Part shown: positions 21,001 through 27,000 of the stretch, in pieces
How positions within the stretch are numbered: the stretch's first letter is position 1
Layout of the letters: every line of letters starts with the position of its first letter
Source: a virus
Taxonomy: Duplodnaviria > Heunggongvirae > Uroviricota > Caudoviricetes
Reading direction: 5' to 3' (one strand)
Virus record (IMG/VR): IMGVR_UViG_2718218452_000012
DNA: 64,000 nucleotides
Program-made: the position numbers

Positions 21001-24000
21001 GGGTGACTCAAGTACTTCAACCAGCTTCTTTTTCAACTGTTCACGTACCGTCGAGCCCAGCTTTCGCCATTCCTTTAGTGCCCGCTCGTCAAAATCCAGA
21101 AAATACGCCATCAGAGTTCATCCAGCGTCACACGTACTGGCTTAGGATTACGAAGCCGTTCTTTCACTATCTCCACAAGTTCAGCATCTTCATCACTCAG
21201 GAGTGTCTGTTTGAACGGCAAGCGTTCATTGTCAGCGATATACTCGAGCATGAGACGAAGCGCTTCAGAAGGAGTTACACCCATTTTTTCAAGCGCGGCG
21301 TAAGAACGCGCTTTAAGTTCATCGTCAATACGCAGGTTAATGCTACCCATGTCTTACACCTCTTGTAATTACAAATGTCATTACAAGTATCGCACTACAA
21401 CATGCTTAGGGCAAGTCACGAAGGAAGTCAGAAAGTAGTCGTAAGAACGGTGATCACTGTCCGCTTTGTGCCAGGAGCAGCCATTGCTAAGTCCATCCTG
21501 TATTGTGCAGGTCAGCTCGCTTTTAAAGAGTCCGGCCATCATCTTACTGGTACAGACACCATATACTTTGTGACGGTCAGGCTACATATGCACAACTCAA
21601 CTTATTCATCTATTTTTTGCTTTAGCATGTCAGTGTTGCTTTCTCGTCGGCGGGTGAGCGGTGACCTGACCTGTCGATAAAGGAACGTAGCACGTTTTAT
21701 GCAACACCCGCATGCGGCAGAAAATTATTGCCGAACGTTTACCCCTGTCAACAAGCTTTACTTTCTGAGGCGCGCCAGCCCGCGAGGAAAACAATCTGAA
21801 CATCAAACAATTAATGACACAAGAAATACGATTAAAGATTTTTTTGTGCATGCCGATAGTGCTTTTTTAAAAGGAGAAATCTATGTCTGTCACAATTCAG
21901 GGAAATACCTCAACCGTTATTTCAAACAACTCCGCCCCGGAAGGAACATCAGAAATAGCCAAAATCACAAGACAAATTCAGGTGCTGACTGAAAAGCTTG
22001 GGAAAATCTCATCGGAAGAGGGGATGACGACACAGCAGAAAAAAGAAATGGCTGCATTGGTACAGAAGCAAATTGAAAGCCTCAGGGCTCAACTGGAGCA
22101 GTTGTTAAGGCAGCAGGCAGAGAAAAAGAATAAAGACGCGACAGTTCAGCCTGATAAAAAAGAAGAGAAAAAAGACGATACAAATACCGCTGGCACCATT
22201 GATATTTACGTCTAAGTGACAGCCGTATTGTGGCCCTCATCGGGCCACTTTTCGCCATCAGCCTTTTCTTTAAAGACATATTATCTTTGTATCATTTCTG
22301 ATAGTTAACATTACAAGATATAAGTAATGGACGCACTCCCAATTAGTCTATTTAAATCGCCACGAGTTTAACTGACAACCCATGATCAATTATGAATTGC
22401 AACTATTTCTGTAGTCACTTTTGTGGGGACAGTCCACAAAACTGCCAACTTCCGCTTCTTGCTCTTAGCGGACATTAGCATAGGCTATTTACCATAACGC
22501 CTCATTACGCGCACCGCCCAGACTGACTCAGCGCGTTTCTGGCATATCCCCGGTAAAACAAGTAACAAACCACCCGAAAATGAACACCAGAAACGCGACT
22601 TAAGAATCTACCCTATGAATGGATATGCACTCAACCGAATCGATCTTGGTTTCAATCTATTTTATCGGGATCAGGCTTCTTTTTAGGTAACTTCGGGGGC
22701 TTAACTTGCTGATGACTTTGCGTTCGGCGCGTAGGCCAGGGATGGTCAGCTTTAGATTTAACATAGTATTTTGAGCGTAAATCAATACGGGCATTATCCA
22801 CTCGTTCATGGACACTCTTTTCATCATCCAGTGGTATAGGCTCCGGGCCATCAACATACTTTTCCCAGCCCAGCGCTTTCCCGTCATACAGAACGTTAAT
22901 TTCACCGTCAAAGTTCTCACATACAGTAACAACCGAATGCCTAAGTCGATATCCCCGGCCCTCACTGCGTACCTGAAACGCACTGCTTTTGTACTGGAAA
23001 GTGAGATTTTTAGACAGAACGCGCTTCGCCTGTAGGCTGAAGATATAACCCAGTTCCTCTTCAGAATGGTGCACATCAAGATGAGCATTATCAGTAGTAC
23101 GAGGCGACGTAGCGAACCGGTTGTTATAGGCTTCAATAAAGGTCGGCAACCATGCATTTGCTGTTTCAATATCACTGATATTCTGAAGCCACATTTCTTT
23201 GACCAGCCTGTCCTGTAGTGTCTGATTGGCGCGCTCTACCCGCCCTTTTGCCTGCGGGCTGTTGGCATGGATTGGCTCGATGCCCAGTGTCTTTATCGCA
23301 CGAGTGAACTGGGTCAGCTCACCTTCCCGCTCTGGGTTATTTACCCTGAATATACTGTGTCTATCAGAGTAGAGAGCGAGCGGTACGCCATGATCATTAA
23401 GGTAACCCCGGAGGGTTTCCATGTAAGCCCGGGTTGTTTCAGCAGGCACAAAACGCAACGCCATCAACGCACTGGTGGCATCATCAATGAAAACGATCAG
23501 TGTACATCTGGGGCCTCGATTTTCAAACCAGTCATGAGGTGAGCCATCAATCTGGATCAGTTCACCGTAAGATGGTCGTCGCATGCGGCGTTGATATATA
23601 CGGGCAATTTTACGACGGCGTTCACGCCATAACCCCTCTTCTATCATCCACTTTCTGAGAGTTTCAACGGATAAAGATAAACCGTGTATCTCGCGCAATT
23701 TTTCGCACGCAAACGTAGGTCCAAAATCAGCGTAACGGCCTTTGAGGAGTGAAATTACTGTTGCTCTGAATTCAGTAGAAAAGGAATTATTAGGACGCTT
23801 TCCACGTCGGTGGGAAACCAGACCAGAAGGCCCTTCATTTCTATACCGTTGCACCAGACGTTTAACCTGCCGAATAGAAATGCCAATGCGTGCCGCAGCT
23901 TGTTCCTGAGTAATATGTCGATTAATTGACTCCTGAATAATCTGAAGTCGGTGGAGTTCCTTATGACTCATCGTAACAGTCTCTTTGATCATGAAAAATC

Positions 24001-27000
24001 CCCCAGAGAATTGTCTGGGGACATTTTAGAATGGTTCAAAGGGGACATTACAGCTTGATGTTAACAATAGCCTGCTTCTCCTTGCCTTCCGGCACTCGCG
24101 ACAGATTATGTTTAGACGACTGTCGTAGCGACGTATTTCTCCGTCAGGTAATGACCAGATAAGGTCCGGATCAACCACAGCAGGTTTCTTCACCTTTGCC
24201 CTCGAGAGTTTTTTGCGGGCGTTTTGCCAGTCCTTACGCGCCTGTTCAGACGGGAATAACCCGTAACCAGAGCTGTATACATCGCCACTGGCAACCAGCT
24301 CTCTGGCCAGAACGCTCATCAGATATCTTGTTGCCCCAGTTTTAGCTTCCAGTTGTCGTAACGTCTCGCGCCCACTCTGGCGTACGAGTTCCACCACCTG
24401 CCCTTTAATTTTTTCCCGCTCTTCTTGTGTAAAAACTTTTGCCACAAGTCCTCCTGAACATTACTTTATACCCTAAAATCAACACTTATCCCCTGAAACC
24501 AGGCGGAATTTCTGTATCCGGTTCAGAAATATGATTCACACAACGCTTTACAGGTGAACGTCCCAGGCGGATGACCAGTTCGTCCCATTTTTCGCGGAGT
24601 TTTGACGGGCTCATGATGTTTTTTACCCAGAATTGATCTCGCTGTACCCGACCAAACATTTCGCAAATTTGTCTGTGGCTTCTGCCATCCAGCATCCGCA
24701 TTGTGCGCACGTCATTGGCCCAGGCTGTCCAGTTAGGCTCTTTTGGTCGCATGATCTCTCCATCGTCGCTGGCAGCCTGTTCGTAAAGGTTCACGATCCG
24801 CCCCCAAATCCACTGCGCACACGCCAAATCCTCCCTGCTACCCCACTGGCGTTTTTTCGCACTAAACACAACCGCGTCGGGGTTCCGGGTTAAAAAATCC
24901 TGTTCAGCGGTCTGCGGGTCCGGTTGCGAAGCTTCCGGACGAAAAGTGTTTTTATTCTCTGTAGTAATCTCTGTTGTATTCTCTGTAAGATCATCAGGCC
25001 ATTTTGACCCGATGACATTGGGTCGTTTTGAACCAATGGAGCGTTTCATTTTGACCTCTTCCATCGTGTCATTTTGACCTGATGGAGCGGCGCATTTTAA
25101 ACCGATGGATTCGCTCAATTTGCCACCATCTAAAAGCTCGCTCCCGTAGTTGATCGTGTAGAAATTGGTCATATCGCGCTTTGATTTATTGAGCTTTTCA
25201 CAACGCAAAAGCCCCAGCGTTTTCAGACTTGCAAACGCGCGCTTTAACGTTGACTCTGACCAGAATGGGAACTGTTCCAGCCATTGTTCCGTTGTGTTGT
25301 AAATCCAGCGAACACCATCACATTCCATGCCGGAATTGGTATCTCTCAACCAGTAATGCAACTGCTGCAACACAATGGCTTCATTTAAGCCAATCTTCAT
25401 CGCAAGCTGTGTGTTTATAACCAGTGGGCGTTCAGCAAAAAGAAGGCTCATAATTCCATCCAGCTTTTTGTTGGTATTGCTGTCGATACGCAAGTTTGAA
25501 AGCAATTGCTTTTTCTATAAGTTCGTCAGTTTCACGATCCACTACGGCAGGATCAGCAAAAAGCAGTCCGGACTCCACCACATCGCCATATTCTTTGTTT
25601 AACCCGGCGATCATGTACGTGATGCTTTTTCCGTCACTAATTTCACGATACAACCTGAAATCATTAATCCGAATAGCCTCCATAATTGCAGGCACTAGCG
25701 CCGTGAACTTTTCACGCTTATCCCTGGTGTCGATAGCCTTCCAGCGTTCGAATATCTTCACTCGATTAACGCCAAGTGCTCGCTGATCAACCGCGCCACC
25801 TTCATCTGTGACACGCTGAACATCGATGTTCGGGCGCTCTTTCAAAGCCCAGAATGCTTCAGTGATTAATATCGTCGCCTGCTCCTGTGTCATTCCTGGT
25901 CGACATATCCAGGCATCCAGAGCCTCACGAGCCTGTTCAGGAGTGATTTTCATTGTTCAACCGCCCCGCCCGCTTCGTCTTACGATATTCGTCATAAACC
26001 TTGGGATCATACAGAAGCTCGCCGCCAGATGCCTCCTGTAGACGCATCGCGCGACCTTCAGGAACCAGCTCTTGCCATTGAGAAACAGCAGATGGGTCAA
26101 CGCCAGCAGCTTTCGCTACTTTGGCTTTCGTACCGTAAAAATTAATTACGTCTGATTTAAACATCGCACCTCCAATATTGAGTTTTCTCAATGCTAATCA
26201 CTCAAGGAATCTCAAGTCAAGGGTTATTAAGATATCTAAATATGAACGAGAAAACTTTAGGTCAACGCATTAGAGAAAGACGTAAGCAGGTAGGCTTAAG
26301 TCAAAACGGTTTAAGCAAAGCTGCTGGCGTATCTGGCTCATCAATTTCATTATGGGAAAGTGACCATACAGCCCCGCGCGGGCAAAATTTGCATCGCCTC
26401 GCCGAGGTATTGCAATGTTCACCAACTTGGATACTGTTTGGCGACGAGGACAAAACACCAGCTCCCCCTGTTTCACTCGATAGTGCCTTAGACTTATCGG
26501 AAGATGAGTTAGAGATGCTGCGTTTGTATCGCGCACTTCCTAAATCAGAGCAACAAGCACAACTCAGCGAACTCCGCGCCCGCGTTGAGAATTTTAATCG
26601 CCTGTTCACCGAGCTATTAGAGGCTCGCAAACGCAACAAGCATCAATAATCATCCCTTCACAAAATTTTAAAGCCTTACATTTCAATGTATTGGCTTTAT
26701 CTTGCGCCAACACTTGAGTTTTCTAATCAAAAAACCTTGACGAAAAATAATGAGAAAACTAAATTACCTCCATCAAGACACCGCACGGTGTTCTCAGCAA
26801 ACAGTTCCGCTACCCCGGCGTTAAGGGGAAATGAGGTCAGCATGGATACTATCGATCTTGGCAACAGCGAATCTCTGGTATGTGGCGTGTTCCCCAACCA
26901 GGACGGCACGTTCACCGCGATGACGTATACCAAAAGCAAAACGTTTAAAACCGAAAATGGTGCCCGTCGCTGGCTGGAAAGAAACTCAGGTGAGTGATAT

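Follow-up and report, generated by a model that had tools for sequence, protein, structure and literature searches.

The 64,000-nt stretch of DNA analyzed here (the window) is IMG/VR virus record IMGVR_UViG_2718218452_000012, assigned to Caudoviricetes, and holds two Qin-type lambdoid prophage early regions in head-to-head orientation, referred to below as arm A and arm B. Our analysis strongly indicates that a transposase gene in arm A is part of a unit transposon of 3,301 bp, a member of the IS1202 insertion sequence (IS) family, which extends from 20766 to 24066, carries relE, relB, ydfV, flxA, and the transposase gene, and is inserted at the start of hokD, and that the neighboring DUF977 gene lost its 3′ end to a later and separate deletion. 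We place the probability of the explanation as a whole, i.e., a unit transposon in hokD followed by a ~3.6-kb deletion at a microhomology, at about 0.87. Both ends of the element, its target duplication, an empty site, an undeleted intermediate, independent copies, and an intact transposase open reading frame (ORF) with its DDE residues were each observed directly.

Ends, target duplication, and empty site

The relE-side terminal inverted repeat of the element lies at 20766..20795 (+) and reads TGTCAACGCAAAGCAGAAGTGTCACCTTCG, with a second TGTCA motif ~23 nt inward, while the transposase-side repeat lies at 24037..24066 (−) and reads TGTTAACATCAAGCTGTAATGTCCCCTTTG, with a second AATGTCCCC motif ~25 nt inward. 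The tips are TGTCAAC at 20766 (+) and TGTTAAC when read from 24066 (−). When the relE-side end (TGTCAACGCAAAGCAGAAGTGTCACC) was compared with the transposase-side end (TGTTAACATCAAGCTGTAATGTCCCC), 18 of 26 positions matched (21 of 30 over 30 bp), with TGT/ACA tips. The internal repeat of the relE end consists of TGTCAC and TGTCAT ~23 nt apart, a layout also seen in a simple IS (L022, described below), and these internal copies are presumed to be transposase binding sites.

The same 15-mer, ATAGCCTGCTTCTCC (reverse complement, GGAGAAGCAGGCTAT), abuts both ends: the first copy of this target-site duplication occupies 20751..20765, next to the relE-side end, and the second occupies 24067..24081, directly outside the transposase-side end. 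It occurs exactly three times in the window, against an expectation of zero by chance, and the third occurrence is the empty target site, a single copy at 37270..37284 (−) directly before the hokD gene of arm B (37283..37438 [+]). The target gene in arm A is the 51-aa hokD ORF at 20597..20752 (−), which is annotated as hokD in identical E. coli loci; the duplication, including its copy at 24067..24081, spans the hokD ribosome-binding site and extends to the AT of the ATG start codon. A preliminary description of this DNA had called for terminal inverted repeats and a target duplication to be sought and for a comparison with an empty site in arm B. The comparison proved apt, with the single 15-mer found before the arm B hokD and not in DUF977; the repeats and the duplication were both present at 20766/24066, and neither was present at 22285 or at DUF977.

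Comparison with related copies gave the same limits. Specifically, the homology of plasmids to the relBE side of the element begins at 20766, and in copies with an unrelated flank (IncP plasmid, L010/L012) divergence sets in at 24066–24068, which marks the right end. In the other copies, the bases past 24066 are alike without being identical and represent the upstream regions of hok genes. Independent plasmid copies match the window only from ~22447 to 24066–24094. Searches for inverted repeats bounding 22150–24150, and for 22400–22540 against the right end, returned best matches of 12/18 and 14/22, at chance level and in implausible positions, and the best match near 22447–22520 was 11/18, also at chance; the lack of any repeat above chance near 22447 pointed to a far end elsewhere. 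An AATGTCC motif at 22467–22476, past the transposase stop codon, has the wrong orientation for a decayed far-end repeat. A composite transposon made of two ISs was considered and rejected: the element has one transposase gene only, and its far end is a bare 26–30-bp repeat beside relE with no second IS copy.

Internal architecture and cargo

Between its ends, the element consists of two conserved arms and a variable segment. The relBE arm (20766..21478 [−]; 0.71 kb) comprises relE (20824..21111), relB (21111..21350), and the relBE promoter region, and it recurs with the same limits and 98.5–99.6% identity in elements with other cargo (L007, L011, and L029). A total of 638 plasmid records cover at least 80% of the arm query (window 20600–21480) at one place; among the matches listed, these start at 20748 or 20766 and end at 21474–21478. 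The adjacent relB and relE genes probably form a type II toxin-antitoxin pair, judging by the genes themselves, since the same DNA (99.9–100% identity) is annotated as encoding RelB WP_000534858.1 and RelE WP_000323025.1. The transposase arm (22447..24066 [−]; 1,620 bp) comprises the transposase ORF (22652..23992), a 205-bp 3′ region, and, at its inner end, a terminal hairpin (TCCGCT/AGCGGA, 22451–22472), and was found at 91–99% identity across at least four left-hand contexts.

The segment between the arms (21479..22446 [+]) holds flxA (21883..22215) and most of the ydfV ORF (21375..21680), and it is replaced in relatives. The ydfV ORF starts within the relBE arm, crosses the arm/cargo boundary at 21478, and has no Pfam match; it may be chimeric or spurious. 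In other elements, the cargo comprises nickel and chromate resistance genes, ncrABCY and chrBA (L011, 2686–13023), a cytochrome b561 gene with a CDF-type cation-efflux transporter gene (L029, 4173–5907), or, on an IncY plasmid (L007, 1393–2466), the phage-defense candidate HEC-08 (PADLOC E-value, 4.9e-145). Plasmid copies flanked by ncrY, considered as evidence for a different left boundary, turned out to be the same element with 10.5 kb of cargo. Likewise, the segment 22446–22610, considered as non-IS backbone on account of a 165-bp match in many transposase-free plasmids, proved to be a remnant of the transposase arm cut by IS26 in the one record examined.

A competing view is that only the 1.6-kb transposase arm (~22447/22458..24066), catalogued as ISEsa1, is mobile, that relBE, ydfV, and flxA are mere neighbors, and that the 15-bp repeats arose by recombination between hok genes. 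The arm does occur beside several different sequences, namely ncrY, flxA, ISEsa2, and an ATPase gene, and the ISfinder length of ISEsa1 is 1,609 bp. Each of these different neighbors, however, proved to be enclosed in a longer unit, bounded by the relE-side repeat and flanked by a matching duplication, and this includes two sites that are not hok. Moreover, the interval 22447–22520 holds no inverted repeat above the chance level given above, and no duplication was detectable for the 1,609-bp unit as described by Harmer & Hall (2023), who list ISEsa1 with 15/22 repeats and a 439-aa transposase (PMC10132070). The length itself may have another source: ISEsa2 (IS110 family) lies inside the hairpin in L029 (2271/3780, both sides read) and is annotated beside the transposase arm in L008 and L014, and ISEsa2 is inserted 1,609–1,610 bp away from the transposase end (equivalent to window 22458..24066). 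We therefore consider it improbable that the transposase arm alone is the mobile unit.

The unit transposon and the ISEsa1 entry thus share the name assigned by PGAP (the NCBI annotation pipeline), a transposase of 439/446 aa, and the 1,609 bp between the transposase end and the ISEsa2 insertion point, whereas the unit in the window differs from the entry in its length (at least 3.3 kb), its 18/26 repeats with TGT/ACA tips, its 14–16-bp duplications, and its relBE genes and cargo. We infer that the 1,609-bp catalogue entry defines ISEsa1 in truncated form, which would explain the reported absence of duplications.

A later deletion clipped the DUF977 gene

The intact DUF977 gene of arm B (33290..33712 [+]) serves as the reference state; it encodes 140 aa and matches Pfam PF06163 over profile positions 1–133 of 134, so the preliminary description was right to call this early protein complete. 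The truncated gene of arm A (24026..24445 [−]) encodes 139 aa, of which the first 120 residues (...RECRK) are shared with arm B and the last 19 form a foreign tail. The point of divergence between the arms had been located correctly at 24085/24086, where their inverted-repeat homology stops. The replaced end had also been described as 20 codons derived from an IS, and here only part of the claim stands: the gene is indeed truncated and the element supplies ~13 of the 19 codons in the tail, but the first ~6 (24067–24085) come from a relic of the hokD leader.

This relic spans 24067..24094 (−), and its reverse complement, TGCCGGAAGGCAAGGAGAAGCAGGCTAT, comprises the leader, the ribosome-binding site, and the first two start-codon bases of hokD. 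It is identical at 27 of 28 positions to the leader of arm B (37257–37284), where the sequence is intact, and from GCCGG onward (27 nt) it is identical to the leader in E. coli 2018-06-4CC. The deletion junction lies at 24086..24093, in an 8-bp microhomology, CTTCCGGC (reverse complement, GCCGGAAG), common to DUF977 codons ~118–120 and the hokD leader. In the two parental sequences, DUF977 reads GAGTGCCGGAAG followed by AGTG, and the leader, of the E. coli 2018-06-4CC type, reads CGCGCCGGAAG followed by GCAAGG. Between the transposase-side tip and the resumed DUF977 sequence, there are thus the 15-bp duplication and, in all, 19–28 bp of hokD leader.

An undeleted form of this prophage exists in E. 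coli Z1323CEC0015 (L013), which carries dicA, dicC, a ydaT-like gene, a hypothetical gene, and an intact DUF977 gene, followed by a SMEK-domain gene, a methyltransferase gene, and a membrane protein gene (3.5 kb), the full hokD leader, the transposon, and hokD. It is 99.97% identical to arm B over 5.8 kb, and its existence demonstrates that a later deletion gave rise to arm A. An intact leader adjoining the transposase end was found in 39 complete E. coli genomes, and the deleted junction of the window was found at ≥99% identity in 104 complete genomes. The DUF977 gene is therefore clipped by a ~3.6-kb deletion that occurred after the insertion and runs from codon 120 into the hokD leader, with the equivalent of ~33650–37256 lost. 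The corresponding segment of arm B (33650..37256 [+]), absent from arm A, contains the DUF977 3′ end, the SMEK-domain gene, the methyltransferase gene, the membrane protein gene, and the mok/sok-type leader of hokD. Mechanistically, recombination at the 8-bp GCCGGAAG after the insertion would have removed the 3′ end of DUF977, the three cargo genes, and most of the leader, and so created the junction at 24085/24086. Taken by itself, the loss of the DUF977 3′ end is unremarkable, a microhomology deletion within a defective prophage.

Adjacent deletions are commonly generated by IS elements, and the deletion ends only ~20 bp from the transposon, so we considered that the transposon made the deletion itself, by intramolecular transposition. 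Such a transposase-mediated deletion would join new DNA to the tip of the element; here, the full 15-bp duplication and 4–13 further leader bases survive, and the junction falls inside an 8-bp repeat common to both parental sequences, which makes this origin of the deletion quite unlikely. Least credible of all, and in our judgment very nearly ruled out, is the view that a simple IS at ~22285–24085 jumped into DUF977 and replaced its last 20 codons: the arms do diverge at 24085/24086 with the transposase gene directly beyond, but the transposase-side end is 24066 in every independent copy, 24067–24094 is hokD leader, neither 22285 nor DUF977 has an inverted repeat or duplication, the DUF977 3′ end that should have been displaced is missing on the other side, and the undeleted intermediate exists. 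Neither 22285 nor 24085/24090, the boundaries first proposed, is an end of the element, and the insertion did not clip DUF977, given that the element sits in hokD and no DUF977 3′ end lies beyond it. What we found instead is a larger unit with other boundaries, 20766..24066, that includes relBE, ydfV, and flxA.

The transposase and its relatives

The transposase ORF (22652..23992 [−]) is uninterrupted and encodes 446 aa from the first ATG or 439 aa from the MSHKELHRL start, the latter being the length given originally. As had been noted, a helix-turn-helix (HTH) and DDE transposase lies beside the truncated gene: the N-terminus gave four overlapping HTH-type Pfam matches (HTH_28/29/32/23), and the core matches the integrase-type domain rve_3. 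The protein scored 460.8 bits (cut-off, 250) over residues 17–377 against NCBIfam NF033594 (ISNCY family transposase, ISNCY_2 model), and the residues D149, D210, and E253 (motifs IQIDGS, LYSDRH, and GRVERA) are kept in a 56%-identical homologue from a simple IS. Identical or near-identical copies are named "IS1202-like element ISEsa1 family transposase" by PGAP. The family that had been left open is thus IS1202, previously classed as a group within ISNCY, and among named elements ISEsa1 is the closest.

The transposase gene has matches in 1,269 of 5,426 complete E. coli genomes and in 817 plasmid records; the plasmid transposase WP_004196353.1 and the protein encoded in the window have four residue differences. 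In chromosomal copies (L001, 3453–4772; L002, 1953–3293; same DNA as 22652–23992), PGAP annotates an "incomplete" pseudogene plus a separate 49-aa YdfW/hypothetical protein, and plasmid copies just four residues different carry an intact transposase annotation. The pseudogene call on an uninterrupted 446-aa ORF is probably an annotation artifact inherited from K-12.

Members of the IS1202 family have TGT/ACA ends and a repeated inner part of the inverted repeat, with catalogued repeats ranging from 15/22 to 25/25 (PMC10132070). The element in the window shares these traits, having a homologous transposase with an HTH region and DDE core, TGT/ACA tips, imperfect repeats of ~24–26 bp, and an inner repeat copy. 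One subgroup of the family makes duplications of >15 bp, while phylogeny places ISEsa1 in a separate subgroup with no duplication (PMC10132070). ISTde1, ISVisp7, ISShha1, and ISCARN53/62/63 resemble our element in having a DDE transposase of the same family, 24–26-bp imperfect repeats, and duplications of ~16 bp (16–17 bp in these ISs), but they are simple ISs of 1.3–1.7 kb for which no target was found by Harmer & Hall, whereas the element in the window has passengers and a preferred target. ISAjo2-type ISs and the transporter IS ISKpn21, which target dif/pdif sites, are similar in inserting at a fixed position relative to a short, recognizable sequence common on plasmids and in having TGT/ACA ends and an internal repeat, and some carry an extra ORF; they differ in making 3–5-bp duplications 3–6 bp from XerC/XerD sites. 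In comparison, the element in the window makes 15–16-bp duplications beside a GCAA-type motif in hok, and its flanks have no dif-like sequence.

Also related are simple ISs of 1.5–1.6 kb in metagenome-derived genomes of marine gammaproteobacteria, one end of which (TGTCAACGCAAAGCAGAAATGTCCCC) agrees with the relE-side end in 24 of 26 bases. These ISs make 15–16-bp duplications, with GTCAA directly outside wherever both ends could be paired. At one end, the multi-copy simple ISs in L020–L079 (marine Pseudomonadales, Azotimanducaceae, and others) show the motif GCAAAGCAGAAATGTCCCC two or three times in tandem. A multiple alignment of these transposases was usable only for L022, the ORF calls being wrong in the others; in L022, which has a clean ORF, the transposase gene begins at the TGTYAGC end, and the TGTCAAC end lies beyond its stop codon. 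The enterobacterial element has the appearance of an IS of this kind into which DNA was inserted, after the transposase gene and before the far repeat. Our full-text search found no paper that links ISEsa1 or ISNCY transposases to relBE or hok, and none that reports which target ISEsa1 uses or what duplication it makes, with subscription journals mostly outside its reach.

Independent copies and target preference

Further analysis of complete elements on plasmids and chromosomes of several genera revealed perfect 14–16-bp duplications in 16 of 17, the window's own included. Nine kinds of target site are represented; most are hok start regions, and one insertion has the opposite orientation. 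The duplication was 15 bp long in 12 of the 16 copies, 16 bp in two or three, and 14 bp in one; an ambiguous A/T at hok would turn 15 into 16. These lengths come near the 16–17 bp of the long-duplication subgroup of the family. The duplication GGAGAAGAAGGCCAT flanks the 3.3-kb copy in a plasmid hok (MKLPR...) of pEnt261, the 6,093-bp elements on Enterobacter adelaidei and Superficieibacter plasmids, and the Citrobacter portucalensis copy (L055/L056), which occupies the same hok position in the opposite orientation. A 12,843-bp element on pMRY16-398_1, with ncrABCY, chrBA, and other genes as cargo, is flanked by GGAGAAGTCAGCTAT; the E. coli 2018-06-4CC copy, in the hokD of another prophage, by GGAGAAGCAGGCTAT; and the Kluyvera cryocrescens copy, in a hokE-like gene, by GATATGCTGACAAA. 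Two copies with 16-bp duplications, in Kluyvera sp. STS39-E (TACCAAAACAAGCCCC) and Citrobacter sp. (CCAGGCGGTACAGTAT), lie at sites unrelated to hok.

In a collection with one genome per species, 14 of 18 informative transposase-side flanks fell in hok start regions. In nearly every site, the duplication starts directly after GGCAA, TGCAA, GGCAT, or GGCAAG. At sites with one base fewer between the ribosome-binding site and the ATG, the duplication moves with respect to the ATG and stays fixed relative to the GCAA-type motif. The motif is a candidate for what the transposase recognizes.

Several points weigh against our interpretation of the element and its target. The remaining 4 of the 18 transposase-side flanks lie outside hok, so that the target specificity is a strong preference and not absolute. 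The complete copy in L013 has imperfect flanks, ending in GGAGAAGTATGGGTCC on the transposase side and beginning with GAGAAGCAGGCTAT on the relE side. Many of the copies at hok sites have one duplication sequence in common and could stem from a few events spread by recombination, although their leader and hok flanks differ. Where the two ends lie on separate 8-kb loci, their pairing rests on matching flanks and not on contiguous sequence; merging paired loci from the same contig by overlap yielded none that overlapped, so the lengths of such elements come from flank pairing. The truncated definition proposed for ISEsa1 is tied to the catalogued entry by a coincidence of length only. Finally, that the element is still mobile is something we infer from the sequences.

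As a separate observation on the L013 flanks (9320–9337 and 12638–12655), TATGGGTCC stands in place of CAGGCTAT on the transposase side, and the relE side lacks one G.

The relBEF locus of E. coli K-12

The window from 18000 to 22836 is 99.8% identical to K-12 MG1655, with the same relE-side end and the same hokD junction. In K-12 (L080, 5675–6137), the homology then jumps from window 22836 to 25674, i.e., 22837–25673 is deleted, from which it follows that ydfX is a fragment of the ydaT-like gene; ydfW corresponds to the last 49 transposase codons (window 22652–22836). K-12 therefore keeps ~2.07 kb of the transposon, from the relE side only, and because the transposase end is missing, the transposon is not recognizable there. 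By these comparisons, the K-12 relBE-hokD locus appears to be a truncated remnant of the relBE transposon. Thus, relBEF of the K-12 Qin prophage has the relB-relE-hokD order and the end seen in the window, but, unlike the window, it lacks the transposase end.

In the account given in PMC6379469, Ramisetty & Santhosh (2016) had already noted that relBE is integrated into hokD and is of plasmid origin. These authors regarded the promoter plus toxin-antitoxin genes as the transferred unit. Co-transcription of relBEF in K-12 is credited to Gotfredsen & Gerdes (1998) in PMC5120126. Full-text searching found no paper that names a transposase or transposon as the vehicle of relBE; a prior description is possible, subscription journals being mostly beyond the search.

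Other features of the window

The two prophage arms share an inverted repeat of 1,980 bp at 94% identity (24086–26065 in arm A, 31670–33649 in arm B), and more inverted pairs lie on the hokD/rem side of both. The arms join at a near-perfect 2.4-kb palindrome (27743–30126) that has no spacer and is centered at 28934/28935. A query across this center was covered to ≥80% in none of the 5,426 complete E. coli genomes, and the best-listed matches comprised one half only and stopped at the center, within an exonuclease gene. Misassembly is one possible source of the palindrome, and a rare inverted duplication is another.

Between DUF977 and hokD in arm B (33965–36552), the SMEK-domain gene, the gene for a class I S-adenosylmethionine methyltransferase, and the membrane protein gene form the segment lost from arm A, which looks like an accessory (moron-like) cluster. 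An Rfam scan of 20300–24500 returned a sub-threshold isrK match at 20507–20588 as its sole hit.

Discussion

Our results suggest a model in which the element is laid out as a TGT-type repeat, a 1.62-kb transposase arm, variable cargo, a 0.71-kb relB-relE arm, and an ACA-type repeat. A TnsB-like DDE transposase would bind the repeated AATGTCC(C) motifs at both ends, pick targets by a sequence resembling its own tip (TGTYAAC), and join the ends 15–16 bp apart, so that transposition into the translation-initiation region of hokD would duplicate the 15-bp GGAGAAGCAGGCTAT. The start regions of hok genes would supply the GCAA-type motif, mostly as GGCAA, and hence the element would land mainly on plasmids and prophages; these regions being largely confined to such replicons, spread on mobile DNA would be favored. 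This preference for hok parallels the dif/pdif targeting of other IS1202-family members.

In the usual orientation, hokD would keep its ribosome-binding site and start codon and lose its own promoter and mok/sok leader, which, together with the hok promoter, would point into the transposase gene. At the other end, relBE would read outward over an end region of 57 bp into hok, as in the relBEF arrangement, and hok may thus be transcribed from the relBE promoter. The relBE pair itself may stabilize the element or its host replicon.

Taken together, we lean toward a broader reading in which ISEsa1-type elements, rather than being 1.6-kb ISs that make no duplication, are cargo transposons, tipped with relBE, that home to the ribosome-binding site and start of hok genes on plasmids and prophages, apparently by measuring off 15–16 bp from a GCAA motif similar to their own tip; on balance, they would cut hok off from its antisense control and put it behind relBE, the K-12 relBEF locus would be a decayed end of one of them, and they would move metal-resistance and candidate phage-defense genes from one replicon to another.

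These findings correct the anatomy of a widespread transposase gene and probably explain the apparent lack of target duplication in ISEsa1, and they provide a first target preference for an IS1202-type element with long duplications. They also offer a concrete vehicle by which relBE could have entered hokD, an integration that was known but had no explanation. A toxin-antitoxin transposon that lands in another addiction locus bears on how the stability systems of plasmids and prophages replace one another, and its cargo bears on the spread of nickel, chromate, cation-efflux, and defense-candidate genes. The interest of the locus lies in the redefined element, an IS1202-family transposon that carries cargo, is tipped with relBE, and targets hok.

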